DNA from: a phage
Assembly: GCA_018175035.1 (NCBI GenBank)
Contig: GCA_018175035.1_4099.2
Direction: 5' to 3' (one strand)
Length of the DNA stretch: 33,238 nt
Shown: in pieces, positions 3,713 through 28,428 of the stretch
How positions within the stretch are numbered: the stretch's first letter is position 1
How the letters are laid out: each line of letters begins with the position of its first letter
Program-made: the position numbers and the translations under genes
Notes under the pieces: generated by a model
Told to the model about the DNA's origin: nothing
The model's database searches: none
Seen by the model: only the letters and a program-made list of their open reading frames with translations

Positions 3713-4441
3713 ATGATAGATAATATAAAATTTGCAACAGAAATGGCGAATCAACTCAATATTGCAAATTTCCAAATGTTAACATCTGTTATGGCTGAAC
3801 ATGCTGCGGCATATTCATCTAGCGGTATACAATGTGGACAAGCTAACATGTTAGCTGATGTTTATAGTGAAGTTCAAAGCAAACAATATAGCGTAAAGAC
3901 ATACAAGGATAAGTTCGTAAGTCTTTATATGAATGAAGATATTTCAGAAGACCGCAAATTCACCGATTTTATTATTGAACGCCGTATTAGTGGGGTTTCA
4001 GACCCAAATGCAGCAAGTGATATTGTATTCGATGAGGTATTAAAAGATATATATGAAAATGAATTGAAAAGTAAGAATCATTACAATGTACGTGAAACTA
4101 ACACAGTGCTAGTTGGATATGATGAAGACGACCAATATTTCTATTTTCGTATAACAGAAGTTCCATTTGAATATAAAAAACCATCCACTACATCGGTAAA
4201 AGAATTCACTGAGAAGAGTAAAAACTTCAAGAAACACGAAGGAAACCGTTGTAGTATTAATGGTTATGATGAAAATGGTGTTCATGTTTATGAATGGGTT
4301 TCACCTAATTGCCAAACATACACTCGTTGCTTGAAAAAACGTTATAATTTAGAAGAGCATGAATCATTCTATTTTAAAGTTAAGAAGCAAGGTTACACTC
4401 GCCCCGCCGATTCTGAATTGATGGGTATGATATATTTCTAA
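3713..4441 (+). CDS. Hypothetical protein
   Basis: ATG with AAGGA SD; 242-aa ORF. Confidence 0.65.
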   Translation: MIDNIKFATEMANQLNIANFQMLTSVMAEHAAAYSSSGIQCGQANMLADVYSEVQSKQYSVKTYKDKFVSLYMNEDISEDRKFTDFIIERRISGVSDPNAASDIVFDEVLKDIYENELKSKNHYNVRETNTVLVGYDEDDQYFYFRITEVPFEYKKPSTTSVKEFTEKSKNFKKHEGNRCSINGYDENGVHVYEWVSPNCQTYTRCLKKRYNLEEHESFYFKVKKQGYTRPADSELMGMIYF

Positions 4442-5666: not shown

Positions 5667-6352
5667 TTAAAGATTTAGATAGAATTTTATATGTACTAAG
5701 GGGTGTAATTACATTACATCCACAAATCAATCGAATTGAAAGTACATTTCAGTTGGAGTCAAGAGAAACTCCATATTCACATATATCAAATGTAGTTGGT
5801 TCACTCAGTACTGAAGACTCGCCTTACGATATTTGTGTATGTGAAGTACAACCAAGTTCGGATCTTGGATTTGCTATTTTTGATAAAAATCAAAATCTCA
5901 TTAGTATGTTTCAGTGCAATAATCCTTTTTGGAAAACATGCCTGTATCCAGAGTGGGCGATGCTTGATCCAACCAAGAGTACCATTAAAGTTTATGACTC
6001 TAAAAATGATGAAGTCGTTATTGATTTGGATGAGTCAATGTCAGAGGAAGAACACTTTCAGCTAATGATGATGCGTGCTATGCCTGAGTACAATGCAATG
6101 ATTAACACTGTGCAATACATTAAGGATACTATGCCATCATTGCGTACACATGAGTTTTGTCATCCTGTATTGTATGAACATTTGGATTTAGATTTCAGTA
6201 CTATTAAATTTAAAGATAGTGTTATTAGATATATCCAAGAGGTTACTAAATTTGATTTTATTAGTACTATGAACAATAATCCAAAAACTAATTTTAGGCA
6301 TCAGTACAATGAATCTTTGTCCGGTGGACGCGATACAAGTTGGTGGAAATAA
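5663..6352 (+). CDS. Hypothetical protein
   Basis: TTG start overlapping upstream stop, GGGGA SD 8 nt upstream; 229 aa. Confidence 0.55.
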   Translation: MIKDLDRILYVLRGVITLHPQINRIESTFQLESRETPYSHISNVVGSLSTEDSPYDICVCEVQPSSDLGFAIFDKNQNLISMFQCNNPFWKTCLYPEWAMLDPTKSTIKVYDSKNDEVVIDLDESMSEEEHFQLMMMRAMPEYNAMINTVQYIKDTMPSLRTHEFCHPVLYEHLDLDFSTIKFKDSVIRYIQEVTKFDFISTMNNNPKTNFRHQYNESLSGGRDTSWWK

Positions 6353-6353
6353 T

Positions 6354-6617
6354 ATGAATATTAAAGATAGATTACAATTACTATACACTATTGAACAGGC
6401 TGCTTTTGAACTTGTTAATAAAATCTCCGAAGAACTTCCCAAAGGAACTATAGTTCGTGTAATTGAGAGGGATTATGAATCTGGAGAAATTGAAGAACTA
6501 GTACTAACCGTGAATAAAGTAACATACTATGAATCTGAGTTGGCTATCCAATGTATATCGGAAGATGGTAAAATATACTATTATGACACTGGTGTAGATA
6601 TAGAGGTAATAAAATGA
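6354..6617 (+). CDS. Hypothetical small protein
   Basis: ATG 6354 directly after upstream TAA, GGTGGAAA upstream; track start 6309 would overlap upstream gene by 44 nt. Confidence 0.5.
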   Translation: MNIKDRLQLLYTIEQAAFELVNKISEELPKGTIVRVIERDYESGEIEELVLTVNKVTYYESELAIQCISEDGKIYYYDTGVDIEVIK

Positions 6618-7756
6618 CCCTTTTACAAATATATGAAGATTTAATGCACTTATGTAATACAAACGATGCGTTTTTTTATGTGGATCATAAAAGTCCTGCT
6701 GGTGGTACGTATCGTGTATTCAGTTATCGTCTAGCATCATACACTGATTTCATGCAACCAAATGCGTTGGAAACCCGTGGCTCTATGTGGGAAATTGATG
6801 AAGAAGGTGACATGATACGTTGTGCAGCACGTACAATGAAAAAGTTCTTCAATGCTTACGAGAATCCTGCTACAATGTTCCCTGCTAACACCACATGCGA
6901 TGACATTGCGGTAGTGATGCCTAAGTTGGATGGTTCGATTATCAGTACTTATCGTGATAATGATGGTGAGATTCGTTGTAAATCACATACTGCATTGTAT
7001 TCTGACCATGCGATTAACAGTACTCGACTTATTAACGAGAACCAGAATTTGTACCAGTACATCGACGAAGCGGAACGTTTAGGTTACACAGTTAATATGG
7101 AGTATACAAGCCCAGAGTACCGAATTGTATTACCATATCAGGTAGAACAACTGTTTGTACTGAACGTTCGACATCGTGTGAGTGGTGAGTTGCTATGTGG
7201 TAAAGCACTACGTGATAAGTTTCCATGTCTTGCACAGTACAGTACTAATATGACTGGAAAAGATATTCATCACACTTTTCCGGTACGAAATACCTTCCGT
7301 GAAAGCGTGGAGGAAGTTCATAAAATGCTTGATATTGAGGGTTTTGTGTGCATCCTAAATAATGGGACAATGTGTAAAATAAAGACTGACTGGTACAGTT
7401 CATTACATCTTACAAAAGATAGTATTATTATTGATTCTCATTTATATGAAGCAGTATTAAATGGTTCAAGTGATGATTTAAAACAATTGTTCAGTACTGA
7501 TGAATATGCTATGCAAAAGATATTAAGAATGGAACAATTGGTATTTTCGTGCTATAATGCATTACAAGATGAAGTAGAAAGCTTCGTCAAGGAACACAAG
7601 CACTTGGAGCGAAAGGAATTCGCAATGAAGGTTCAGGAGTGTTTAACTAATGAACTGAATCGTCAGGGCTTGGCCTTTGCAATGTATAACAATAAGAAAG
7701 TTGATTACAAAGAGACTCTTATAAAATACATGAAAATTGTACTAAAGGATTTTTAG
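6614..7756 (+). CDS. rnlA: RNA ligase 1 (T4 Rnl1 / gp63 family)
   Basis: N-terminal region closely resembles T4 Rnl1 as I recall it (FFY..D...G.TYR.FSY..ASY.D...P.ALE.RG...E.D....R...R.M.KFFN..ENP.TM); KxDGS nucleotidyl-lysine motif (PKLDGS); ~380 aa. Confidence 0.9.
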   Translation: MTLLQIYEDLMHLCNTNDAFFYVDHKSPAGGTYRVFSYRLASYTDFMQPNALETRGSMWEIDEEGDMIRCAARTMKKFFNAYENPATMFPANTTCDDIAVVMPKLDGSIISTYRDNDGEIRCKSHTALYSDHAINSTRLINENQNLYQYIDEAERLGYTVNMEYTSPEYRIVLPYQVEQLFVLNVRHRVSGELLCGKALRDKFPCLAQYSTNMTGKDIHHTFPVRNTFRESVEEVHKMLDIEGFVCILNNGTMCKIKTDWYSSLHLTKDSIIIDSHLYEAVLNGSSDDLKQLFSTDEYAMQKILRMEQLVFSCYNALQDEVESFVKEHKHLERKEFAMKVQECLTNELNRQGLAFAMYNNKKVDYKETLIKYMKIVLKDF

Positions 7757-7786
7757 TACTATCTAGCCTAAGCACAAGGAGAAGTG

Positions 7787-8041
7787 ATGGCTAAACCTAA
7801 GTATAAAAATGACGGTTCCCTTTCTCCGACTGAGTTCAGGAAAATACAAGAAGAAATCGATGAATTACAGCACAAACGCTCAATGAAAGGTGTGAAGATA
7901 AGTAAGAAACGAATCGAGAATACCTTCGGATGTAGTAGTACTGAATACAAGAAGAAAAGGAAACCAAAAGGTGTTAAGCCGAGAATACATGATGTAACTC
8001 GCTATACATCGAAACGTGAAAATAAATTTGATCCACTATAA
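7787..8041 (+). CDS. Small highly basic (Lys/Arg-rich) protein, possible nucleic-acid binding
   Basis: ATG 5 nt after AAGGAG; track start 7784 is GTG. Confidence 0.55.
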   Translation: MAKPKYKNDGSLSPTEFRKIQEEIDELQHKRSMKGVKISKKRIENTFGCSSTEYKKKRKPKGVKPRIHDVTRYTSKRENKFDPL

Positions 8042-8050
8042 GGAGTTCAT

Positions 8051-8281
8051 ATGAAAGTTGAAGTTCAGCATAGTATTGTTCAGGATATGTCAGTAGTTAA
8101 ATTTCTTTCTCTGAAAGATTACTTCAGATGTATCAAGTTCCTAGAAGAATCTCAATTACAGTGGACCCCATTAAAGTACAGTTCATCCAATGATACTGCT
8201 AGTATTCGTTGTGATGAATCTGTACTTGTGAAAATCTCCAAGCGATTTGGAGTAGGAAAAGTTAATGAGCACAGTAAGTGA
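8051..8281 (+). CDS. Hypothetical small protein
   Basis: ATG with GGAG SD. Confidence 0.55.
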   Translation: MKVEVQHSIVQDMSVVKFLSLKDYFRCIKFLEESQLQWTPLKYSSSNDTASIRCDESVLVKISKRFGVGKVNEHSK

Positions 8282-8519
8282 CCTAAAATACTACAACAAA
8301 ACTGCGGATACGTTTATTACTCATTTATATGAAGAATTTAGTCGTATCCGTAAGGAATATACAGGTAAATGTATTTTATATAGTTCTTATCATAGTGGTG
8401 GAATTGAAAGTGCTTACATTACTAAAGTGAAGTTTTCTGATGACTATCAATTACTCTTTGAATTAGATGATTGTTTCGTTATTGAAGCTTGTTTGATAGT
8501 GGATGTTCTAGATAATTGA
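8265..8519 (+). CDS. Hypothetical small protein (paralog family B-like, YTGKCILY)
   Basis: ATG ORF overlapping upstream gene by 17 nt. Confidence 0.5.
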   Translation: MSTVSDLKYYNKTADTFITHLYEEFSRIRKEYTGKCILYSSYHSGGIESAYITKVKFSDDYQLLFELDDCFVIEACLIVDVLDN

Positions 8520-8525
8520 GGACAT

Positions 8526-8840
8526 ATGAATAAAGAACTTGTATTTGAGAGGATCGAAAAGTTAAAGTACATTGAAAAGGAACTAATAGAATCTGTCGAA
8601 TCAATGGTCGAAGATTACGTTTTCGATTTTAAGAAAACATTGATTGGATGTAAAGTTAAATGCTGGGATCATACAATCAGAGAATGGTTCAGTACTATAA
8701 TTCTTGATGTTAAAGTATCGCGTACTGCTATTGGTAATTTAGTAAATGGTGAATGCTTTGTATACACTGAATACAATAACGGAACAAGAAACCTTTCAAG
8801 AGGATGGCACAAACTCGAAGATGTAGAATTCATTGAGTAA
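8526..8840 (+). CDS. Hypothetical small protein (paralog family B-like, LIGCKVKCWD)
   Basis: ATG with GAGGA SD. Confidence 0.55.
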   Translation: MNKELVFERIEKLKYIEKELIESVESMVEDYVFDFKKTLIGCKVKCWDHTIREWFSTIILDVKVSRTAIGNLVNGECFVYTEYNNGTRNLSRGWHKLEDVEFIE

Positions 8841-8852
8841 CAAGGAGTAATA

Positions 8853-9785
8853 ATGCCAACTATTACACTAACAGTTGGATTACCTGGGTGTGGTAAAACC
8901 ACATGGGCAGTTCAAGAAATTAAAAATGCCAAATCCAAGACTATCAACATCAACCGTGATGATATTCGTGAATCTATGGCTGGGTCACATGATGCTTACA
9001 AATTCAACGATGCTAATGAGCAGTACGTAACTAATTTACAGTTCAGTGCAGCAAATTCAGCAGCAGAGAATGGTTGGAACATCATCATATCCGATACAAA
9101 CCTTAAACAACATTTCCGTAATCTCTGGAAAGTATGGGCTAAAGATAATGGTTATGATTACAAAGAAAAGAACTTCTATGATGATTTTGTACCTAATGAA
9201 GACCGTGGTGCAGATGTTCATGAATTCTTTAAGATTAAAGAGTTCGTAAAACTTTGTAAGAAATATAACCTCCAGCGTGAGCGTTCAGTACAAGATGATA
9301 TCATTGACACAATGGCAGATACGTACTATTATAGTAAGGCATTACACATTGGTTACTATGGTAATTCACGCGAAGCTGCTATCATCGTTGATATCGATGG
9401 AACTCTTGCTCATAAATGGGGTCGTAATCCTTACGATGAAAGTACTGTTCTTCAGGATACACCTGATGAAGAAGTTATTTTGTCTATTATCGCTGAAGCA
9501 GTTTTTCATAAACGCAAGATTATCGTCATGAGTGGGCGTACTGAAGGGTGTCGTGCTGATACCGAACAGTGGCTTAAGAATTGGGGTGTTCCTTACGATG
9601 CATTGTTTATGCGAGATATCGATGATAAACGTCCTGATGATGTTGTAAAATTCGACCTGTACATGAAAAATGTGGTTGATCATTACGATGTTAAAAAGGT
9701 ATATGATGACCGCGATCAAGTTGTATTCATGTGGCGTAAGCTACTTGGGTTGAAAGTTTTCCAAGTGGCTGAAGGAAATTTCTAA
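8853..9785 (+). CDS. pseT: Polynucleotide 5'-kinase / 3'-phosphatase (T4 PseT/Pnk family)
   Basis: AAGGAG SD; N-terminal P-loop GLPGCGKTT with NINRDD; C-terminal HAD phosphatase motif DIDGTL; C-terminus ...DDRDQVVFMWRKLLGLKVFQVAEGNF resembles T4 Pnk as I recall it. Confidence 0.9.
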   Translation: MPTITLTVGLPGCGKTTWAVQEIKNAKSKTININRDDIRESMAGSHDAYKFNDANEQYVTNLQFSAANSAAENGWNIIISDTNLKQHFRNLWKVWAKDNGYDYKEKNFYDDFVPNEDRGADVHEFFKIKEFVKLCKKYNLQRERSVQDDIIDTMADTYYYSKALHIGYYGNSREAAIIVDIDGTLAHKWGRNPYDESTVLQDTPDEEVILSIIAEAVFHKRKIIVMSGRTEGCRADTEQWLKNWGVPYDALFMRDIDDKRPDDVVKFDLYMKNVVDHYDVKKVYDDRDQVVFMWRKLLGLKVFQVAEGNF

Positions 9786-9789
9786 TACA

Positions 9790-9820
9790 AAAGGGATCAT
9801 ATATTGGTCCCTTTTTCTTT
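9790..9820 (+). terminator. Rho-independent terminator
   Basis: Stem AAAGGGATC / GGTCCCTTT (9 bp incl. one G-U), 7-nt loop, then T-rich tail. Confidence 0.55.
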
Positions 9821-9852
9821 TAAGGTACATTATAGTGAATGTAACAACACAG

Positions 9853-10011
9853 ATGTTATTACAAAAAGACTACTTAGAAAATATAGAACGATACTATAGA
9901 TTGTCTTTGTATGAAAATAAGCATAAAAATTATAGTTTTGATAAACTACTAAATTCCAGTACTGATGATTATCTATTTTCATCAATGTTTTATGTGAGAG
10001 GTTTATTATAA
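9853..10011 (+). CDS. Possible small ORF (52 aa); not in ORF track
   Basis: ATG 9853, stop TAA overlapping next ATG (TAATG); no clear SD. Confidence 0.3.
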   Translation: MLLQKDYLENIERYYRLSLYENKHKNYSFDKLLNSSTDDYLFSSMFYVRGLL

Positions 10012-10271
10012 TGGATAAATTTCACACAGATATAACACAGATAGGTAATCTTATCAATAGTCTAATTACTGATTTAGAAGAAAAGTACTTAGGTAGAAAT
10101 GTATACGTAGAAATGTATGAAACATATGGTGTTATTGATATGATTTATTACAGTGCATTGAAGTGTGAAATACGTTTAACAGTATGTTTGTTTGAAAAAA
10201 ATACATTCAACAGAAGTACTGCAATTCGCCAAGTTGGAGTTGATGATATAGAATTATACGAGGAACAATGA
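10011..10271 (+). CDS. Hypothetical small protein, paralog family B (KYLGRNV motif)
   Basis: ATG ORF; motif DLEEKYLGRNVYVE. Confidence 0.55.
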   Translation: MDKFHTDITQIGNLINSLITDLEEKYLGRNVYVEMYETYGVIDMIYYSALKCEIRLTVCLFEKNTFNRSTAIRQVGVDDIELYEEQ

Positions 10272-10522
10272 TGTTTGAGCAGGACTTAGAGATATTCAAA
10301 AGTTATATTGATTACTTGACTATATTAGAAAATGATTTAACTACAAAGTACAAAGGCATTCGTGTTCTGTGCTGGTATGATGATTGGGATTATAAACGTG
10401 AACTCACGATTGATCGAATTTATTTCAGTGACGGTGTACTAAATGTACATGGTGTAAATGATTTTGGTCATTCATATACATATTCTAATAATGCTAAATT
10501 TAAAAGGATCTACAATGAATGA
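10268..10522 (+). CDS. Hypothetical small protein, paralog family B
   Basis: ATGA overlap; motif DLTTKYKGIRVLCW. Confidence 0.55.
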   Translation: MMFEQDLEIFKSYIDYLTILENDLTTKYKGIRVLCWYDDWDYKRELTIDRIYFSDGVLNVHGVNDFGHSYTYSNNAKFKRIYNE

Positions 10523-11800: not shown

Positions 11801-12407
11801 CAGTGCATATGTAATCGGTATTATTATTTCTGGTATGCTTGCATATAACTATAACCGAAGTGTTCTAGGTTATGTAGTACTTGGTACAGTACTAAGTCCA
11901 GTGATTGCCATTGGTCTTCTTGTTATGCTAGGTGAGAAAAATACAAGCTTCTTTATTACTAAAGAACTTGATAAAATCACTCCAGCACCAGAAACAGTTA
12001 TTCCAGAAGTTAAAGAAGAAGTTAAAGAAGTTGAAGTTCAAATGCAAGTTAAAGTGTATAATACACTTGAAGAAACTGATCCTAAAGTTGTAGTGAATGT
12101 AGTTCCAGTCGTTGAAGATGTGAAACCAAAAGCTCCTAAAGTACAGAAAAATACTAAAACTGCAAAGAAAGCTCGTTACACTAAAGGTAAGAACAAAGGT
12201 AAATCTAAGGATGAACCACAACTAGGTGTTCATGACCATACTGCACAAATTGCAACGGCAGCGACCGCAGCAGCAATCGTAACATCACCAATCTACAACA
12301 ATGATGATTACAGTGATTATAGCCGTCACAGCAGTTCTTCCTCTGATTCTTGTTCCTATGATAGCTCTAGTTCTGATTCAAGTTCATCGTCTGGAAGTTG
12401 TGATTAA
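11778..12407 (+). CDS. Membrane-anchored protein with Lys/Glu/Val-rich linker and Ser-rich C-terminal tail
   Basis: Two hydrophobic N-terminal segments; C-terminus SSSSSDSCSYDSSSSDSSSSSGSCD. Confidence 0.6.
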   Translation: MLTPIILSSAYVIGIIISGMLAYNYNRSVLGYVVLGTVLSPVIAIGLLVMLGEKNTSFFITKELDKITPAPETVIPEVKEEVKEVEVQMQVKVYNTLEETDPKVVVNVVPVVEDVKPKAPKVQKNTKTAKKARYTKGKNKGKSKDEPQLGVHDHTAQIATAATAAAIVTSPIYNNDDYSDYSRHSSSSSDSCSYDSSSSDSSSSSGSCD

Positions 12408-12736
12408 TGTCAATGAAACCACTAATTCAACATAATATTTTTTATAGGTCATTATTCAAAATTCAAGATGATTTTTATCAGACGTTGAGTAATGATCTTA
12501 TAGGTAAAACTGTACGATATTCGGAACAATACATCAAACGTATGACAAGTCAGTATATTGACCCTGAATACGAATACGACATTGAACACATTAATCCCAA
12601 TACTAGAATGAAAATCATTGAGATATTTAAGAATGGGAGAACTATAGGTGCTGAAATTGAGTACTTGAATTGTGATTGTTACATAGATACAGAGTTGAGT
12701 TTGGATTATCTTGTTTTAGTGGATGATGAGGAATAA
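12407..12736 (+). CDS. Hypothetical small protein, paralog family B-like (LIGKTVRY)
   Basis: TAATG overlap. Confidence 0.55.
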   Translation: MSMKPLIQHNIFYRSLFKIQDDFYQTLSNDLIGKTVRYSEQYIKRMTSQYIDPEYEYDIEHINPNTRMKIIEIFKNGRTIGAEIEYLNCDCYIDTELSLDYLVLVDDEE

Positions 12737-12738
12737 TT

Positions 12739-12954
12739 ATGATAACATTTTTTGCAATATATGGATTTGTAGCATTTGTTACATTTATAACCAACTTTCT
12801 AGTACTTAATTGGGGTTGTTTTAAAGATGAAATCATGATTATCATGAATCTCCAAACAGCAGCACTGATGGCTATTATTTGGCCTGTAACATTAGTATAT
12901 ATTTTTATTTCACTTACCCAAGATATTATTAACAAATATAAGAGAAAGAAATAA
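12739..12954 (+). CDS. Small membrane protein (two predicted TM helices)
   Basis: ATG ORF; hydrophobic, C-terminus KYKRKK. Confidence 0.5.
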   Translation: MITFFAIYGFVAFVTFITNFLVLNWGCFKDEIMIIMNLQTAALMAIIWPVTLVYIFISLTQDIINKYKRKK

Positions 12955-13205
12955 TGTTCAACACTGACTTATCACATCTGCGATATCTTATGTCTTTGGC
13001 TGATGATTTTATAAATGATCTGAAGCCAAAATATATTGGTCAAGAAGTACGATTAATAAACTCCAGAGGGTATGGAAAGTATATTATTACTGATATGTAT
13101 ATTAGTGGTGGTGAATGGCGTTTTAAAATTAATACTTATCTTAAAGATGGTTCTTTTGCTGGAACACAAGTTACTAAACACACTAATATTATATGGTTGG
13201 AGTAA
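12954..13205 (+). CDS. Hypothetical small protein, paralog family B (KYIGQEV)
   Basis: TAATG overlap; motif DLKPKYIGQEVRLIN. Confidence 0.55.
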   Translation: MFNTDLSHLRYLMSLADDFINDLKPKYIGQEVRLINSRGYGKYIITDMYISGGEWRFKINTYLKDGSFAGTQVTKHTNIIWLE

Positions 13206-13207
13206 TA

Positions 13208-13951
13208 ATGAAACACTTCTTAGAAGTAACCGTACCTGATGATAAAGATTTATACATTGTAGGTGATTTGCATGGTAATGGTAAACTATGGGATGCTACA
13301 GTGAAAGAATTTGGTATTACACACAATGATTATGTTTTCAGTGTAGGTGATATTATCGACCGTGGAGAACAAAATTCAAAGCTCCTTTTTGAATTTTTGT
13401 TCGGAGAAAATCGTTACATGATTGCGGGTAATCATGAGATGATGTGCGTTGATTCGGAAACACTTCGAGATTGGTATCATTGTTGGATAAGTAATGGTGG
13501 TGATAAATTCCTTGATGAAGTTGGAGGAACAGGCATTCAATTCTTTCGTCAGTACTTAAAGGATCTCCCTATGATTATCCAAATCAATCACCGAGGATTG
13601 AAGATTGGGTTAGTTCATGCTGGTGTTCCGTTGGAATATACAACATGGGAACGATTTGTTAATGGGACAAAATCACTTAGTGCTGATATAATTGATAAGT
13701 GCTTGTGGGATAGAAAAACATTCGATTATTGTAGAACTAATAATACATATTATGCACCTAAGTTAGATGGAGTGCATTGTGTCTTTAGTGGACATACAGC
13801 AGTTACAGATCCACTCATTTACGGTAATCGCATTTGGATTGATAGTCAGTTCTTGACGGGTGACTTAACTCTCGCTACTCCACAAAGTGGTGGAATGAGA
13901 TACTTACGTAAAGAAAAAGATGAGTACTCATTCAATCGTTTCAAAAGGTAA
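13208..13951 (+). CDS. PPP-family Ser/Thr phosphatase-like metallophosphoesterase (lambda PPase / ApaH-like)
   Basis: Motifs GDLHG, GDIIDRG, GNHE; ATG 13208 with GGAG SD just after upstream stop (track start 13193 overlaps upstream gene). Confidence 0.8.
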   Translation: MKHFLEVTVPDDKDLYIVGDLHGNGKLWDATVKEFGITHNDYVFSVGDIIDRGEQNSKLLFEFLFGENRYMIAGNHEMMCVDSETLRDWYHCWISNGGDKFLDEVGGTGIQFFRQYLKDLPMIIQINHRGLKIGLVHAGVPLEYTTWERFVNGTKSLSADIIDKCLWDRKTFDYCRTNNTYYAPKLDGVHCVFSGHTAVTDPLIYGNRIWIDSQFLTGDLTLATPQSGGMRYLRKEKDEYSFNRFKR

Positions 13952-14235: not shown

Positions 14236-14463
14236 ATGAAAGTAATTCAAGTTATGGTAGAAAAATACCAAACTGAAGATGGTCGTATTTTTGATTCAGC
14301 TAAACAAGCTGAACACCATGAACGTATTATTTCGGGTGCACGTAAAGTATGTCCTACATGTAATGGAACACAACAAGTACCGTCAGAAGATTACCGCAGC
14401 TTTTATGCTTGTCCACACTGTGATGGGAAAGGCTACGTAGAAAAACAAGAGGTATGGAAATGA
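14236..14463 (+). CDS. Small zinc-ribbon protein (CPTC...CPHC)
   Basis: ATG with AAGGAAA SD; two CxxC pairs. Confidence 0.55.
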   Translation: MKVIQVMVEKYQTEDGRIFDSAKQAEHHERIISGARKVCPTCNGTQQVPSEDYRSFYACPHCDGKGYVEKQEVWK

Positions 14464-14873
14464 AATTGTATTGTTTAACTAATATGTACTGCCAAGGTGT
14501 CCAAGCTGGTATTCAAGCATTCCATGCTGGTGTTAAACTAATTAAAGAATATGAAGGTACTGCTTTCAGTACTATTATTGATGAATGGTACTATGAACAC
14601 GAAACTATTGTAGTACTAAATGCTGGTGGACATGATAAGTTAAATTCTTATTATAACAACCTTAGCAAACAGGGAAAAGTTCCGTTTGCCAAATTCAATG
14701 AAGCTGGATTGAATGATGCTATTACCTGTGTAGCAGTACTGTGTACGTCTGAAATGATTGAAGACATGGCTGTTATGCGTATGAATCTTCCTGCTGGTGA
14801 TCAACTAATGCAAGTAAAATATGGTGCATTGTTTGACACACTAAAAGCAATCAGTACAATGAGGACTATTTGA
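14460..14873 (+). CDS. Hypothetical protein
   Basis: ATG 14460 with AAGAGG SD at 7 nt (ATGA overlap); track start 14454 has no SD spacing. Confidence 0.55.
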   Translation: MKLYCLTNMYCQGVQAGIQAFHAGVKLIKEYEGTAFSTIIDEWYYEHETIVVLNAGGHDKLNSYYNNLSKQGKVPFAKFNEAGLNDAITCVAVLCTSEMIEDMAVMRMNLPAGDQLMQVKYGALFDTLKAISTMRTI

Positions 14874-16083: not shown

Positions 16084-17502
16084 ATGAGCATTTTAGCAAT
16101 TCTTGAAAGCATTAAAAATACTAGCAGTACACTAGGCAAAAAAGCTATTCTTGAACAAAATAAAGATAATGTAACTTTACAAAAAGTACTGAAATATACA
16201 CTAGACCCTTCTATCGTTAGTGGCTATAAGAAGCTCCCTGCCGCTGATGACGTATATCAACATATGACGTTAGATGAAGCAATTGATAAGCTAGAATGCA
16301 TTTACAAGCGTGATGTGACAGGAAATGCGGGGCGTGATTTCATTGCTTCAGTACTGGGTTCAGTATCAGAAGATGATCAAGAAGTTCTCCGTAAAATGCT
16401 TACTAAAAACCTTGATTGTGGTATTCAAGAAAAGAACTGCAATGATGTATTTGGTAAAGGCTTTATTAAAGACGAACCATATATGCGTTGTTCTTTGATT
16501 GACAAAAAGACTGCAAAGAACATCAACTTCAAAGATTATGGTTACGCTATATCAGAAGTGAAAATGGATGGTCAGTACTTGAACCACGTTGTCATTAATG
16601 GTTCATTAACTTCTACATCCCGTAATGGTAAACTATACGACTTCCTGGGTTGTCGTGATGGTGAGATGGCAGGTCTTGCTCACATCATCCAAAGTAAAGA
16701 TGAACGTTTTAGTAGTGGTGTAGTCTTTATGGGTGAAGGTGTAGTACTGGACAATGATGGAGAAACCATTCTCCCACGCACTACTGGCAATGGTATAATT
16801 CAGAAAGCTGGAAAAGATAGTATCAGTCAGAATGAAGCAATGCGTACTGTATTTGTTCTATGGGATGTTGTTCCATATGATGCATTTTGTGAAGGTGTAT
16901 GGGATGTAAAACGTAAAGAACGTCGCGAGATCTTAGTAGATGCAATTAACGAACTCAGTAGTGATTTTGTTCGTATGGTTGGATTCCGTAAAGTTCTAAA
17001 CATCAAAGAAGCATTTGAGTACAATAGTGAACTAATGAGCGTAGGTGAAGAGGGTTCAGTACTGAAATGTGAAGATGGTATCTGGAAATCTCACACTTCT
17101 CCTAAGCAATTGAAAATGAAACTCAAAATGCAACTGGACTTGCGTATTGTTGGTTTCAATGAAGGTGAAGGTAAGCGTAAAGGTAGCCTTGGTTCTTTAC
17201 AACTGGAAAGTGCTTGTGGTACATTGAAAGTTAATGTAGGTACTGGAATTAAAGAGAAAGACGCAGAATGGACGTTTAAAACCATTTGGGAAAGAATGCA
17301 AGAACTCATCGGTCAAGTAGTAACAGTAGAGTGCAATGATATTGTATTCGATAAGCGTACTGGTGAGCCATCACTGTTCTTACCAGTGTTTATTGAATTT
17401 AGATTTGACAAAAACACTTGTGATGATTATACTCGTATCTTAGAAATTCGTGAGAGTGCAGTTGAAGTGTTCTCAAACAGTATTATTGACGCATTAGGTT
17501 AA
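16084..17502 (+). CDS. ATP-dependent DNA ligase (T4 gp30-like)
   Basis: N-terminus ...STLGKKAILEQNKDN resembles the T4 ligase N-terminus as I recall it; adenylation motif I KxDG (VKMDGQ); ~470 aa; AAAGGA SD. Confidence 0.9.
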   Translation: MSILAILESIKNTSSTLGKKAILEQNKDNVTLQKVLKYTLDPSIVSGYKKLPAADDVYQHMTLDEAIDKLECIYKRDVTGNAGRDFIASVLGSVSEDDQEVLRKMLTKNLDCGIQEKNCNDVFGKGFIKDEPYMRCSLIDKKTAKNINFKDYGYAISEVKMDGQYLNHVVINGSLTSTSRNGKLYDFLGCRDGEMAGLAHIIQSKDERFSSGVVFMGEGVVLDNDGETILPRTTGNGIIQKAGKDSISQNEAMRTVFVLWDVVPYDAFCEGVWDVKRKERREILVDAINELSSDFVRMVGFRKVLNIKEAFEYNSELMSVGEEGSVLKCEDGIWKSHTSPKQLKMKLKMQLDLRIVGFNEGEGKRKGSLGSLQLESACGTLKVNVGTGIKEKDAEWTFKTIWERMQELIGQVVTVECNDIVFDKRTGEPSLFLPVFIEFRFDKNTCDDYTRILEIRESAVEVFSNSIIDALG

Positions 17503-17521
17503 CCATTTATTGGAGGTAATT

Positions 17522-18313
17522 ATGAAATTTGTTGTAACATCTGATGTACACGGTGGGACTGATTACCTCCATAGTGGTGATTACAGTGATACAGTACTGA
17601 TTATTGCTGGGGACTTCGATGAAGTTAAACGCAGTCGTTACCGTACTGGTATCGAATCACTATGTAAGCAGTTTAAGAATGTAGTACTGGTTCCTGGCAA
17701 TCATGAATATTATGGTTCCAATATCCACAAAACGCATAAAGTACTGTCCGATATACAAGATGAGATTCCAAATTTCATCTTTTTGCAAAACAAATTTGTA
17801 TGGCTGGATGGAGTACTGCTTGTTGGTAGTACTCTGTGGACAGACTTCGATAAAGGTAATTCTTTGACGAAGTTTGATGCTCGTCAGAAGATGAACGATT
17901 ACAAACATATCCGTCATGGAACAACATCAGAGCCTTGGCGTAAGAAACTGACACCAGATGATACTGAGTTTATGCATCACAAAGATAAACAATTTATCAA
18001 AAATTCTATTGACACAGTTCGCTTTATGCATGATAATGATTTCAAGGTCATCGTGGTTACCCATCACGCACCAAGTTATCAAAGTATTTCACCAAAATAT
18101 AAAAATGATTCACTGAATGGTTGTTACTGTTCCGATATGGATCAGTACATTGAAGATTTGGGTGCTGATGTTTGGATTCATGGTCATGTTCATAGTAGCT
18201 TTGACTACCACATTGGTAAGACACGTATCATTTGTAATCCACGAGGCTATGAATCATACAGTGGAGCTTGTGAGAATTTTGATTACAATCCTAAATTTGT
18301 ATTTGAAATTTAA
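17522..18313 (+). CDS. Calcineurin-like metallophosphoesterase
   Basis: Motifs SDVHGG, AGDFDE, PGNHEYY, GHVH; ATG 17522 after GGAGGT (track start 17510 is TTG). Confidence 0.75.
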   Translation: MKFVVTSDVHGGTDYLHSGDYSDTVLIIAGDFDEVKRSRYRTGIESLCKQFKNVVLVPGNHEYYGSNIHKTHKVLSDIQDEIPNFIFLQNKFVWLDGVLLVGSTLWTDFDKGNSLTKFDARQKMNDYKHIRHGTTSEPWRKKLTPDDTEFMHHKDKQFIKNSIDTVRFMHDNDFKVIVVTHHAPSYQSISPKYKNDSLNGCYCSDMDQYIEDLGADVWIHGHVHSSFDYHIGKTRIICNPRGYESYSGACENFDYNPKFVFEI

Positions 18314-19179: not shown

Positions 19180-19875
19180 ATGGTTGAACAATTCATGTTT
19201 GGTGGTTATGCTAATGGCGAAGTACGTAACATTTCTATTCCTTACGTAGTTGAGAAAGTTAATGGTTCAGAACGTACATATGATCTAGCATCTCGTATGA
19301 TGCAAGACCGTATCATTTTCCTTGATACTGATTTCAATGATCAAATGGCACATATCATCAAACAACAATTGGTATGGTTAGACTCACAAGGTGATTCCCC
19401 TATTACATTCTACATTAGTTCACCGGGTGGTTCAGTACACGCAGGTTTGGGTATTGCAGATGTTGCTAAGTCTTGTATTTCCCCAATTCGCACTGTAGTT
19501 ATGGGTTATGCAGCATCAATGGGTTGCTATACACAATCTGTTATTGGGACTAAAGGTTTCCGTTTAGGTGGTAAACGCTCATACTTCATGTGTCACCAAG
19601 TAAGTTCTGGTACACAAGGTCTAATTACTGACCAGAAGATTTCACTTAAACATTCTGATGCCCTAAACACTCTATTGACTAAAGAAATTGCAGAAGCAGT
19701 TGGTGTATCACACGAACAACTACTGAAAGATGCGGATCGTGACCTGTGGTTGAACGCTGAAGAAGCACTCGAATACGGTGAACATGGTTTCATTGATGGT
19801 ATCATCCTCGGACCACGCAACGAAGAAGGTAAGTATCTCGTCAAACGTCGCGGTGGCGTTGAAGAGTGGGTCTAA
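19180..19875 (+). CDS. clpP: ClpP-family serine protease proteolytic subunit
   Basis: Strong ClpP pattern: YSRMMQDRIIFL, SSPGGSV.AG, catalytic Ser in GYAASMG, His in MCHQ, Asp in DRDLW, C-terminal EALEYG. Confidence 0.85.
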   Translation: MVEQFMFGGYANGEVRNISIPYVVEKVNGSERTYDLASRMMQDRIIFLDTDFNDQMAHIIKQQLVWLDSQGDSPITFYISSPGGSVHAGLGIADVAKSCISPIRTVVMGYAASMGCYTQSVIGTKGFRLGGKRSYFMCHQVSSGTQGLITDQKISLKHSDALNTLLTKEIAEAVGVSHEQLLKDADRDLWLNAEEALEYGEHGFIDGIILGPRNEEGKYLVKRRGGVEEWV

Positions 19876-21338: not shown

Positions 21339-21834
21339 TACTAATATCTGGTTAGATAACATAATCAAGACATTAGAATTAATTAAACTTACATTACAAA
21401 AAACTACAGATATTGAAATTAATATTAAAAAAGAAATATTAAACTATTATCATAGAAACAACTATAGCACGTTTATCTCTAAATTAATTTATGGATTATA
21501 TGATATTGAAGATATTTGCATCGGTTACAGTACTGGTATTTGCTTCACTGTTAATGGTTTAAAAAATGATTTAAATTTCAGACTTTCCGATGAAGAGCAA
21601 GATTTTCGTAGATTTTGTGATAATATTATGGATACAGATAAAATTACATTTGTTATTGAATTAAATCAAACGTGGTCTACATATGCAGATAAACCATTTG
21701 AAATTAATGAAACAGATGTGTTAAACTATATTCGAGTTATGAAAATTCATGATTTGTGTAAAAACGCATTGTTAAGTATTGGAGCTTATAATGAAACATA
21801 CGACTTGGTTGAAGATAGCAGAAGTAGTTGCTGA
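21310..21834 (+). CDS. Hypothetical protein (very AT-rich gene)
   Basis: ATG ORF overlapping both neighbours (29 nt upstream, 44 nt downstream). Confidence 0.45.
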   Translation: MKYTHLSIDDTNIWLDNIIKTLELIKLTLQKTTDIEINIKKEILNYYHRNNYSTFISKLIYGLYDIEDICIGYSTGICFTVNGLKNDLNFRLSDEEQDFRRFCDNIMDTDKITFVIELNQTWSTYADKPFEINETDVLNYIRVMKIHDLCKNALLSIGAYNETYDLVEDSRSSC

Positions 21835-22270
21835 GGAAAGTAAATGTATTTCACAAAAAGTTGGTTGTGTTATTGTTAAAAATAACCGAGTATTGAGTAC
21901 TGGATACAATGGTACTCCATCAAAACAACCAAATTGCTGTGATGTGAATCAACACTTAGTCAATGATGGGCGTTTTCAAGACTGGGTTAGTGATGAAGCA
22001 AAGCATGAACATCATGAGTGGAGTAATATTCATGAAATCCATGCTGAAATGAACGCTTTACTCTATAGTTCTCCTACTGAACGTCAAGGTGCTACTCTTT
22101 ACACAACACTACAACCATGTTATACTTGTTCTAAGTTGATCGCAGGTAGTGGGATTTCACGTGTAATTTATCACAAAAGTTATCCACGAACACCACCTGA
22201 AGCGATTAAAGTACTGGAAGATGCTGGGATTATTGTTAACTGCATTTATGACAAGGGTATGAATCAATGA
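21791..22270 (+). CDS. cd: Deoxycytidylate (dCMP) deaminase
   Basis: Zinc-deaminase motifs HAEMNAL and PCYTCSKLI; N-terminus ...ESKC.S.KVGCVIVKNNRVLSTGYNG resembles T4 Cd as I recall it; ATG after GGAG SD (track start 21779 is TTG). Confidence 0.85.
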   Translation: MKHTTWLKIAEVVAEESKCISQKVGCVIVKNNRVLSTGYNGTPSKQPNCCDVNQHLVNDGRFQDWVSDEAKHEHHEWSNIHEIHAEMNALLYSSPTERQGATLYTTLQPCYTCSKLIAGSGISRVIYHKSYPRTPPEAIKVLEDAGIIVNCIYDKGMNQ

Positions 22271-24989: not shown

Positions 24990-24998
24990 GGATTGAAT

Positions 24999-25751
24999 AT
25001 GATATCAGAAAAATTTATAAGCAATGAAGGTAAAAAGCGATTACTGATTATATCAGGTGCAGGACTTTCTGTTGAAAGTGGTATGGAACCTTTTCGATTT
25101 GATGATGGTTTGTGGGATACATTTAAAATTAATGATGTATGTAACATTGCTAGTTTAACTACGAAATATCACGTTGTTCATTCCTTCTATAATACATTAC
25201 GTGTAAAATTGGGACAATGCGAACCCAATGCAATGCATTATTTTATAAAATCGTTAGAAGATCAATATGGTGATTGCTTCCTTCATATGACTTCTAACAT
25301 GGACGATCTTTATACTCGTATTGGTGGTCATGAGCTTAAACTTCATGGAAACTTGTGCGAAGTTATTGAAAATTATAGTATCAATTCCGATGATTATAAT
25401 GTTATTAACTGCGGATACGAACCATACATACCAAAACATGATGTTTTTGCTAAACCAAATGTAGTAATGATTGGAGAATATCATCGTTATGTTGATGGTA
25501 TTCGCTTACCAATTTACGAAGAACGAAATAATGTGTTGAAATCTCTTAATGAAAATGATACAGTTATTGTAATTGGTAGTAGCGATACAGTACTGGTATG
25601 GTCGAGATTAGCAGCAGCATTACCATGTTATAGTGTTAATGTTAACATTCGTAAAAATGATAATGATTTTTTGTTTAATGAAAAAGTTATCAAGCCAGCA
25701 ACCAAAGCAATACCGCATCTAGAGACTATAATTAAGGAACGTATGAAATGA
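24999..25751 (+). CDS. Sir2 (sirtuin) family protein, NAD-dependent deacylase / ADP-ribosyltransferase fold
   Basis: Sir2 motifs GAGLSVESGMEPFR (GAGxS...SGxPxFR), TSNMDDL (T/QNxDxL), LHGN, VVMIGE, VIVIGSS; no obvious 4-Cys zinc ribbon; ATG after AAGGA (track start 24993 is TTG). Confidence 0.75.
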   Translation: MISEKFISNEGKKRLLIISGAGLSVESGMEPFRFDDGLWDTFKINDVCNIASLTTKYHVVHSFYNTLRVKLGQCEPNAMHYFIKSLEDQYGDCFLHMTSNMDDLYTRIGGHELKLHGNLCEVIENYSINSDDYNVINCGYEPYIPKHDVFAKPNVVMIGEYHRYVDGIRLPIYEERNNVLKSLNENDTVIVIGSSDTVLVWSRLAAALPCYSVNVNIRKNDNDFLFNEKVIKPATKAIPHLETIIKERMK

Positions 25752-26299
25752 GTGTTAAAGAAGTTCCCTTTGGTGAATATGGCACACGTGCAAATTTTGT
25801 ATTTTGTTATTTCTTTGCAAGAAAATGCAACCCTTACAAAAACTATGAGTTGAATGATATACCAGAAGTAAATTTAGTATTACTGCAATTACGATGGGAT
25901 GGTCTTCTTGGTGGATGTGGTGGAACCGTAGAAAGTACTGATATCTCACTAGAAGATGCGTTGCGTCGTGAAGTTCAAGAAGAAATGGATTACAATATTT
26001 TTGTTTCCCATCTTCGACCACTCAAAACTTTTGAAATTTACCCAGGTGCAAACAGTCACAGTTTTAGCTATGAAGTAACCTATGACGAGTTGAAACACAT
26101 TAGAGATGGATACACTAATGCTAAACATGCAAGTGCAGAAGTTGCTGGTGTAAATTTATGTCATATTTCTCGTTATTCTAAGGGACAAAATCGAGAAGCG
26201 GGATATAATAATCTTATGACACAGAACTTCATCGGTACAGCAAAACAAGAATTGGAGTATCTGGTTCAAAAAGAAAACTTACTAATTAGTTATCTATAG
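25748..26299 (+). CDS. Putative Nudix-fold hydrolase (divergent Nudix box)
   Basis: ATGA overlap with Sir2 gene; GGCGGTVE...LRREVQEEMDY resembles Nudix box Gx5Ex7REUxEExGU with a 4-residue insertion and D in place of the last G. Confidence 0.45.
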   Translation: MSVKEVPFGEYGTRANFVFCYFFARKCNPYKNYELNDIPEVNLVLLQLRWDGLLGGCGGTVESTDISLEDALRREVQEEMDYNIFVSHLRPLKTFEIYPGANSHSFSYEVTYDELKHIRDGYTNAKHASAEVAGVNLCHISRYSKGQNREAGYNNLMTQNFIGTAKQELEYLVQKENLLISYL

Positions 26300-26988: not shown

Positions 26989-28428
26989 ATGAAAAAATAT
27001 ACAATTGACACAAACGTACTACTATCTGACCCTAATGCATCTATTGCTTTTGATGGTGCTGCAATCATTCTACCATTTACAGTACTGGAAGAATTGGATT
27101 CAATTAAGAGTCGTAATGTAGATGTTTCACGCGATGCTCGTGTTGCTATTCGTAACATTGAAGCAATTATTGCAGATGCATCACATGATGAGATTAGTAG
27201 TACTGGTGTTAATATTGCTGATGTTCATACCAATATGAATCCTGATAGCAAATTGTTTGTTATTACAAACGAAGAAGCTGAAGCACTAATTCGTACTAAA
27301 GGTTCAGAAGAGAAAGTTCAAACCCTTCTCAAAAGCACAGTACCTGATGATAAAATCATTCTGGTAGCTTTAGCAACAGAATCAGTACTGGTAACTCGTG
27401 ATATCAACATGCGTATCAAAGCACTAAGTTATGGTGTCGAGGTACAAGATTATCGCCATGATATTGTTATTGGTGATAGTGATTTGATTCACATTGGTCA
27501 ACACCATTTGGAAATTAATTTTTGGGAAGTATATAGCAACTTATCCAATACTAATATTCAATCCGAACAAGTTGGTCGTCGTTTGTATCATTACATTTCT
27601 AAAAGCTTGATTGAACATTTGCTTCCACAAAATCTATGCATCGGTGATTATCTATATGATGATGCAGACGTATTATTTGTGTACGAAGGTCAATCAGCAA
27701 TTGAGGAAGATGATGGAACACTAACACCAGAAGATATTTTGGTATTCCAAGATATTGGACAATCAGTAGCTTTACGTGCTAAAGTATGGGATATTAAAGC
27801 AAAGAATATCCAACAAGCACTCGCCATCAACAGTATTCTCGATCCTGATGTACATCTAACAGTACTGCTAGGTTCTGCTGGTACTGGTAAAACACTAATT
27901 ACGATTGCTACTGCATTAGAATTAGTACTGGAAAAACGTAAATACGACCGAATCATCTTCTCTAAAACTCAAGACTCACAGTTTGAAGATATTGGTTTCT
28001 TGCCAGGTTCAGAAGCAGAAAAAGTGATTCCATTCTGTGGAGCCGCAATTGACGCGTTAGAGTTTCTTCATAAAGATGATGCTAACCCACAAGGTAGTAT
28101 TGAAGAGATTATGAAACGTAATGTTATTCAATTTAAAGCACTAAACTTTGTACGTGGACGTTCATTCACCAACACTATTCTAGTAGTTGATGAATTCCAA
28201 AACATTACACCTGCACAAGCCAAAACAATCTTGACACGAGCAGGATTAAACTGTAAAGTAGTAATTATGGGTAACTTGAGTCAGATTGACAGTAAGTTTA
28301 TTAGTCCTGTTAACAGTGGTTTGACATATGTAACTGAGAAGTTTAAAGATTGGGCAGGTTGTCGTGTCATCGAACTAGAAGGTGTTGTTCGTTCACCACT
28401 TGCAGAATTTGCTGAAGAAAATATGTAA
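26989..28428 (+). CDS. phoH: PIN-domain PhoH-like ATPase (PhoH2/YlaK-type)
   Basis: N-terminal PIN-like region (YTIDTNVLLSDP...LEELD); Walker A GSAGTGKT, Walker B VVDEFQN; 479 aa. Confidence 0.85.
   Translation: MKKYTIDTNVLLSDPNASIAFDGAAIILPFTVLEELDSIKSRNVDVSRDARVAIRNIEAIIADASHDEISSTGVNIADVHTNMNPDSKLFVITNEEAEALIRTKGSEEKVQTLLKSTVPDDKIILVALATESVLVTRDINMRIKALSYGVEVQDYRHDIVIGDSDLIHIGQHHLEINFWEVYSNLSNTNIQSEQVGRRLYHYISKSLIEHLLPQNLCIGDYLYDDADVLFVYEGQSAIEEDDGTLTPEDILVFQDIGQSVALRAKVWDIKAKNIQQALAINSILDPDVHLTVLLGSAGTGKTLITIATALELVLEKRKYDRIIFSKTQDSQFEDIGFLPGSEAEKVIPFCGAAIDALEFLHKDDANPQGSIEEIMKRNVIQFKALNFVRGRSFTNTILVVDEFQNITPAQAKTILTRAGLNCKVVIMGNLSQIDSKFISPVNSGLTYVTEKFKDWAGCRVIELEGVVRSPLAEFAEENM

Follow-up and report, generated by a model that had tools for sequence, protein, structure and literature searches.

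A T4-type RNA ligase and polynucleotide kinase gene block with different intervening genes in a RaK2-like jumbo coliphage contig

In phage T4, the products of rnlA (gp63) and pseT form a tRNA heal-and-seal pathway that counters the anticodon nuclease PrrC. Here we describe a phage contig of 33,238 nt (GCA_018175035.1_4099.2; read 5′ to 3′ on one strand and hereafter called the window), in which genes for an RNA ligase 1 of the RnlA family (Rnl1; positions 6614–7756, 380 amino acids (aa)) and a PseT-type polynucleotide 5′-kinase/3′-phosphatase (Pnk; 8853–9785, 310 aa) flank four small open reading frames (ORFs), termed ORF-A (7787–8041, 84 aa), ORF-B (8051–8281, 76 aa), ORF-C (8265–8519, 84 aa) and ORF-D (8526–8840, 104 aa). 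All six lie on the + strand, at positions that match to the base those given by an earlier, sequence-only reading of the window, which had likewise placed four small ORFs between the two enzymes (7787–8840). With a confidence of roughly 80%, we interpret the region as the RaK2-like jumbo-phage version of the rnlA…pseT block known also from T4-like phages. By homology with T4, the HAD domain of Pnk would remove the 2′,3′-cyclic phosphate or 3′-phosphate at broken RNA ends and its P-loop domain would phosphorylate the 5′-OH, while Rnl1, directed to tRNA anticodon loops by its T4-type C-terminal domain, would reseal the break via a Lys104–AMP intermediate. Together, the pair would undo damage inflicted by host anticodon nucleases, on the model of PrrC.

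The gene order is itself T4-like. T4 (NC_000866) carries rnlA, alc, pseT.3, pseT.2, pseT.1 and pseT in this order on one strand, so that precisely four small ORFs separate the two enzyme genes, and the sequence-only reading was mistaken in describing the arrangement in the window as different from that of T4. The synteny comparison with T4-like genomes that it had proposed as a check showed the ligase–small ORFs–kinase block to be shared, with further examples in RB14 (five intervening ORFs), Klebsiella phage Roth79, Acinetobacter phage Apostate and Vibrio phage PG216. Each enzyme is homologous to its T4 counterpart over the full length and about 36–38% identical to the near-T4 RB14 protein; domain architectures, nearly all catalytic residues, gene order and strand are shared as well. 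The differences lie in the contents of the gap, which holds alc, pseT.3, pseT.2 and pseT.1 in T4 and ORF-A, ORF-B and two ORFs of a paralog family in the window; in a histidine in place of Lys119 in motif Ia of the ligase; in a 16-residue insertion in the kinase domain of Pnk; in an insertion of ~12 residues and a shorter C terminus in Rnl1; and in the genome that carries the block, here that of a 350-kb RaK2-like jumbo phage outside the Straboviridae. A distant relationship between the T4-like and RaK2-like groups has already been noted (PMC5259590). Homology of the gap genes between the lineages was considered and rejected: alc, pseT.3, pseT.2 and pseT.1, together with their Vibrio, Acinetobacter and Klebsiella equivalents, gave no phmmer or hidden Markov model (HMM) match in either direction with ORF-A, ORF-B, the paralog family or ORF X, a third small ORF (~75 aa) of related cassettes. 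A ligase–small ORFs–kinase layout common to T4-like and RaK2-like jumbo phages, in which the gap genes have been wholly exchanged, may be useful to specialists.

Ligase and kinase/phosphatase active sites

The T4-type identity of Rnl1, as proposed from the sequence alone, was borne out by every family cut-off that we applied. The protein scores 292.6 bits against the NCBIfam equivalog TIGR02308 ‘T4 RnlA family’ (cut-off 242.25) and 58.8 against Pfam PF09511 RNA_lig_T4_1 (E = 9e-16; cut-off 28.3), while its residues 268–379 correspond to PF20819 T4_Rnl1_C (E = 6.6e-17; score 62.4, cut-off 27). It further matches PHROG 562 (E = 3e-109) and aligns with the T4 Rnl1 structure 2c5u (E = 1.5e-56), the alignment reaching residue 342. 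The all-helical C-terminal domain gives Rnl1 its tRNA specificity, and the retention of T4_Rnl1_C in the window supports tRNA as the substrate.

T4 residues important for activity were mapped onto both enzymes, for the ligase by way of the near-T4 protein of RB14. Motif I of Rnl1 is K104-L-D106-G107 (T4 Lys99, Asp101 and Gly102), with Lys104 at the position of the nucleophile, and this KxDG motif is invariant in all seven aligned sequences. Motifs III, IV and V are likewise kept, as E163, E242-G243, and K255, K257 and Y261 (T4 Glu159; Glu227-Gly228; Lys240, Lys242 and Tyr246), as are the residues R55, K77 and F79 of the Rnl1-specific N-terminal subdomain (T4 Arg54, Lys75 and Phe77), for whose equivalents a role has been described (PMC6379707).

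Pnk combines an N-terminal AAA_33 P-loop kinase domain (residues 5–102) with a C-terminal HAD_PNKP domain (175–310; Pfam, E = 9e-44), and its residues 2–310 align end to end with residues 2–301 of the T4 Pnk structure 1ltq (E = 2.7e-40). On the kinase side, the P-loop reads GLPGCGKTT and K15, D36 and R39 are kept (T4 Lys15, Asp35 and Arg38), with T16 a conservative change from T4 Ser16. On the phosphatase side, the motif D180-I-D182-G-T (T4 Asp165-x-Asp167-G-T) is present with T184, and R191, R229, D262, D285 and D286 are kept (T4 Arg176, Arg213, Asp254, Asp277 and Asp278). With both domains, the P-loop and the DxDGT aspartate found, the T4-type identity of Pnk stands. The sequence-only reading had held that loss of catalytic residues on proper alignment would refute its assignment of the pair; the alignments retain the ligase lysine, the kinase P-loop and the phosphatase DxDGT motif, so no refutation arises from this side. 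None of the six proteins of the block matched a PADLOC defence or anti-defence family.

Some observations weigh against the interpretation of the region as an rnlA…pseT repair block. Motif Ia of Rnl1 (6980–6988) reads K123-S124-H125 where T4 has K117-S118-K119. T4 Pnk Arg126 corresponds to Gln141, with Arg142 adjacent, beside the 16-residue insertion, and because this insertion adjoins, the register at T4 Arg126 is uncertain. Neither tRNA genes nor Rfam matches were found within the window. The T4 gap genes with annotated functions, alc (a transcription inhibitor) and pseT.3 and pseT.2 (spanins), are unrelated to RNA repair, and one related cassette, on contig L015, runs Rnl1-A-?-Pnk and is without a recognisable ORF-B.

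Judging from the alignments, the Lys119-to-His125 change is not an accident of alignment, because the six RaK2-like ligases compared all have K-S-H and the four from Straboviridae all have K-S-K. The lysine equivalent to T4 Lys117, Lys123, is retained on the same strand, two residues ahead of His125. An alanine scan of T4 Rnl1 (Wang et al., J Biol Chem 2003) reportedly found Lys119 to be essential. In a related ligase from fungi, the lysine of motif Ia makes contact with the ATP γ-phosphate and probably also with the RNA 5′-phosphate (PMC6379707), so the substitution could matter for ligase activity. The closest structural relative of T4 Rnl1 is the ligase domain of fungal Trl1 (Rnl6 clade), which resembles Rnl1 in its N-terminal subdomain contacts (equivalents of Arg54, Lys75 and the Phe) and in a motif Ia with both Lys and His, ‘SKHS’ (PMC6379707), but differs in having another C-terminal domain, in needing a 2′-PO4 and in its motif register, S-K-H-S as against K-S-H here. 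We treat this as a resemblance and not as evidence that Rnl1 belongs to the Trl1 group.

The block in RaK2-like jumbo phages

Judged by its closest matches, the window is part of an Asteriusvirus jumbo coliphage with a genome of ~350 kb. Positions 6000–10500 are 96.5–98.2% identical at the DNA level to vB_EcoM_G17 (G17), Sharanji and 121Q, which share the six genes, and to 30-odd further genomes of ~350 kb in or near Asteriusvirus; identity to PBECO4 is about 98%. The G17 record annotates the six, including a ‘putative RNA ligase A’ and a ‘putative polynucleotide kinase’. At the protein level, PBECO4 has the same Rnl1 (100% identity) and a Pnk at 99% identity, and G17 has the same Pnk (100%). 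A ligase–small ORFs–kinase block is present in every RaK2-like phage examined (PBECO4, Turkey5, SE_PL, RaK2, CBB and GAP32). The enzymes of these relatives show no substantive difference from those in the window, while the number of gap ORFs varies, from four here and in G17, 121Q and Turkey5 to three in PBECO4 and two in a group of Salmonella-infecting Asteriusviruses (the SD phages); in the other genera, five are found in RaK2 and three in GAP32, CBB and SE_PL.

The Rnl1/Pnk pair in such phages is already known, as is the proposal of a repair role, since rnlA and pseT are annotated in the nearest genomes and elsewhere among the relatives (vB_EcoM_G17, 121Q, PBECO4, RaK2 gp464/gp470, GAP32_080/084 and CBB_83/87) and a repair role has been proposed in papers on these relatives. 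Both enzymes were named RNA repair proteins in the description of RaK2 (PMC3622015), RNA ligases of the ATP-grasp type were paired with PNK-HAD enzymes in a survey of jumbo phages (PMC7824862), and the rnlA homologue of CBB was suggested to act in tRNA repair (PMC5259590). Four points, offered here as modest leads, were not seen noted in the records and papers examined: that ORF-A and ORF-B are conserved within the cassette, that the contents of the gap have been fully replaced as compared with T4, that Lys119 is changed to His throughout the clade, and that the paralog ORFs have been lost repeatedly.

Divergence from Turkey5 (L005) is mosaic along this part of the window, at 18.4% of nucleotides in Rnl1, 39% in the ORF upstream of it and 5–9% from ORF-A to ORF-D, which suggests recombination breakpoints around the ligase.

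Small genes between ligase and kinase

ORF-A, which the sequence-only reading had singled out as very basic, does have an isoelectric point (pI) of 10.1, with 24 Lys and Arg against 11 Asp and Glu residues. It is predicted to be helical: the AlphaFold2 (AF2) model (mean pLDDT 79, pTM 0.46) comprises a long helix (residues 14–45), a short helix (51–57) and basic, low-confidence tails, and it gave no structural or family match in the searches made. ORF-B encodes a small β-β-α-β-β-α domain. Both are labelled ‘hypothetical protein’ in the records and papers on relatives examined, and in SE_PL an intact ORF-B orthologue (L004 6662–6916; record ~235226–235480) is unannotated, lying in what looks like a gap immediately before the kinase gene.

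The two families have a narrow distribution. ORF-A was found in 62 and ORF-B in 71 phage records, always as a single copy and always in jumbo phages of ~350 kb, whose hosts span Escherichia, Salmonella, Klebsiella, Cronobacter, Pectobacterium, Erwinia, Yersinia, Serratia and Xanthomonas. For ORF-B, only 30 clusters were recovered among 5.8 billion sequences; ORF-A has 59 clusters. A profile search of ORF-B against 1.84 billion representative proteins returned three clear matches (E = 1.7e-28 or better). Five weak ORF-B matches (E = 8e-6 to 2e-4) were judged spurious, being long proteins that each match in 4–7 separate stretches. Across the phage records and large protein collections searched, neither family was found outside cassette-carrying genomes.

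Within the cassette, their positions are close to fixed. When the intervening ORFs of 14 cassettes were classified with family HMMs, ORF-A was the first gene after Rnl1 in every layout and ORF-B was present in 13, contig L015 being the one without it. The layout Rnl1-A-X-B-Pnk, found in SE_PL, CBB and GAP32 and in three metagenomic contigs, is probably ancestral; ORF X is absent from the window. In GAP32, CBB, SE_PL, Yersinia and Erwinia phages and contigs L021 and L023, ORF-B overlaps or abuts the start of Pnk. Among the 22 small ORFs (<130 aa) between 2.4 and 14.3 kb of the window, ORF-A and ORF-B alone have strong orthologues in the SE_PL, RaK2 and GAP32 loci (E = 1e-20 or better), with two others giving single borderline matches (E = 1e-4 and 3e-5).

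Their sequences are also constrained. Identity to the RaK2, CBB and GAP32 counterparts is 65–66% for ORF-B, 57–64% for Rnl1 and 59–65% for Pnk (55–65% with SE_PL included), making ORF-B at least as conserved as both enzymes. Against Turkey5, all 21 codon changes in ORF-B are synonymous; ORF-A has 15 synonymous and 7 nonsynonymous changes, and Rnl1 107 and 53. On these grounds, ORF-A and ORF-B are likely to be lineage-specific genes under strong purifying selection that belong to the cassette. The finding that two small orphan proteins are retained in a jumbo-phage cassette and strongly selected may also be of use to specialists.

ORF-C and ORF-D behave differently. ORF-D is a clear member, by iterated HMM search, of a multicopy family of proteins of ~83–109 aa with an N-terminal helix and a β-rich C-terminal part, which has relatives in RaK2. 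The acidic ORF-C has no PHROG or Pfam match and is a weak member (family HMM E = 2e-3 and 5e-4, in small local databases), as is the ORF at 10011–10271. Further copies are scattered around the repair genes, one overlapping the start of Rnl1 (6309–6617) and others at 10268–10522, 12407–12736 and 12954–13205; PHROGs splits the members among phrog_28139, 31355, 33398 and 37322, all with function unassigned. Copies of the family are gained and lost between close relatives. ORF-C is absent in PBECO4-type and SD-type Asteriusviruses (L002 and L017–L020), a single divergent paralog takes the place of ORF-C and ORF-D in PBECO4-type genomes, and the four SD phages have no paralog ORF between ORF-B and Pnk. 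Synonymous and nonsynonymous changes against Turkey5 number 6 and 8 in ORF-C and 9 and 7 in ORF-D, a pattern that looks relaxed. We read ORF-C and ORF-D as later, dispensable insertions of a multicopy small-gene family between ORF-B and Pnk. The earlier suggestion that the four intervening proteins are accessory factors or unrelated early genes can thus be refined: ORF-C and ORF-D are dispensable, dispersed paralogs, and ORF-A and ORF-B are clade-wide and fixed inside the cassette.

What ORF-A and ORF-B do is a separate matter, on which position alone says little, because the T4 gap genes have no RNA-repair role. We give about even odds to all four gap ORFs being functionally unrelated early genes lodged in a recombination-tolerant gap, in the manner of alc and the spanins of T4. 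The T4 layout and gene functions speak for this, as do the coming and going of the ORF-C/ORF-D paralog insertions and an interval that holds between 2 and 5 ORFs, depending on the relative. Left unexplained would be why ORF-A and ORF-B, alone among ~20 small ORFs, are retained across genera in fixed order, adjacent to Rnl1 and Pnk respectively, and why ORF-B shows no nonsynonymous change; yet all of this is compatible with any essential function.

A more tentative and rather unlikely alternative is that ORF-A and ORF-B are dedicated repair partners, ORF-A as a basic cofactor that binds RNA, tRNA or Rnl1 and ORF-B as a Pnk-binding or regulatory subunit, in a four-protein heal-and-seal machine specific to RaK2-like jumbo phages. 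Consistent with partnership are the nearly invariant placement of both genes, their standing as the sole small ORFs conserved across genera in a hyperplastic neighbourhood, the confinement of both families to cassette-carrying genomes, the very strong purifying selection on ORF-B and, in most genera, an overlap of ORF-B with the start of Pnk that would fit translational coupling. In two Salmonella Asteriusvirus records, SD-15_S21 (L017 2382–3533) and SD-1_S14 (L020 1291–2427), ORF-B and Pnk even form a single in-frame fusion ORF, which hints at functional compatibility of the two. The four near-identical SD phages have, however, four different ORF-B/Pnk junctions (L017–L020), the mark of a deletion hot spot or else of faulty assembly. 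The fusions are recent deletion products, and because the junctions differ by indels of 2–8 nt among such close siblings, they could reflect assembly error or neutral change in a non-essential gene. The cassette without ORF-B on contig L015 and the T4 precedent, where unrelated genes are stable in the same interval, argue in the same direction. Should ORF-A and ORF-B turn out to be Rnl1 or Pnk cofactors, they would extend a textbook pathway of phage counter-defence and offer cheap, testable targets.

Besides sealing RNA, T4 gp63 has a second, ligase-independent activity in tail-fibre attachment. That the ligase homologue in the window serves mainly such a non-catalytic role, which is echoed in database names, or that its chemistry is altered by the clade-wide histidine in motif Ia, is very improbable, given that the other 11 mapped T4 Rnl1 active-site residues, the tRNA-specificity domain and Lys123 two residues before His125 are all kept, that an intact Pnk is linked, and that no tail-fibre gene context is present within the window.

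Expression signals and neighbouring genes

The window is AT-rich (GC content ~33%), and the genes of the block are tightly packed, with gaps of at most 30 nt or overlaps between successive genes. An AGGA/GGAG-type (Shine–Dalgarno) motif precedes the start codon of each of the six ORFs; for ORF-A, ATG at 7787 is the likely start over GTG at 7784, because AAGGAG sits 5 nt 5′ of the ATG. A terminator-like hairpin on the + strand (9789–9815; AAAAGGGATCATATATTGGTCCCTTTT followed by a T-rich tail) begins 4 nt past the Pnk stop codon, and a terminator is annotated at the same element in the G17 record. On account of the tight packing on one strand and this terminal hairpin, the six genes are probably co-transcribed as one unit. 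A scan for σ70-type promoters returned fewer matches than in shuffled sequence and is therefore uninformative.

Upstream of the block, five small ORFs form a tandem paralog array (116–391, 388–654, 645–956, 967–1278 and 1241–1525; chained pairwise phmmer E = 1e-4 to 3e-8). A 310-aa ORF at 2755–3687 matches the C-terminal half of the PHROG ‘endonuclease’ family phrog_681 (E = 6e-21), is without counterpart in the SE_PL, RaK2 and GAP32 loci, and may be a mobile or homing endonuclease. The 242-aa protein at 3713–4441 (phrog_16105, function unassigned) matches nothing in Pfam or the PDB, yet its conservation is very strong (E = 1e-104 to 1e-111), and in SE_PL, RaK2 and GAP32 it lies at a similar place, 1.2–2.6 kb upstream of Rnl1.

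Downstream of the cassette, the window encodes a PrpA-like Ser/Thr phosphatase (13193–13951), a weakly matching Pth2-like protein (14454–14873; E = 4e-4, far below the family cut-off), an ATP-dependent DNA ligase (16084–17502), a second metallophosphoesterase (17510–18313), ClpP (19180–19875), Sir2 (24993–25751), a Nudt16-like Nudix hydrolase (25748–26299) and a PIN-PhoH fusion protein (26989–28428). A dCMP deaminase gene also lies downstream, at 21779–22270; T4-like phages likewise have one downstream of pseT.

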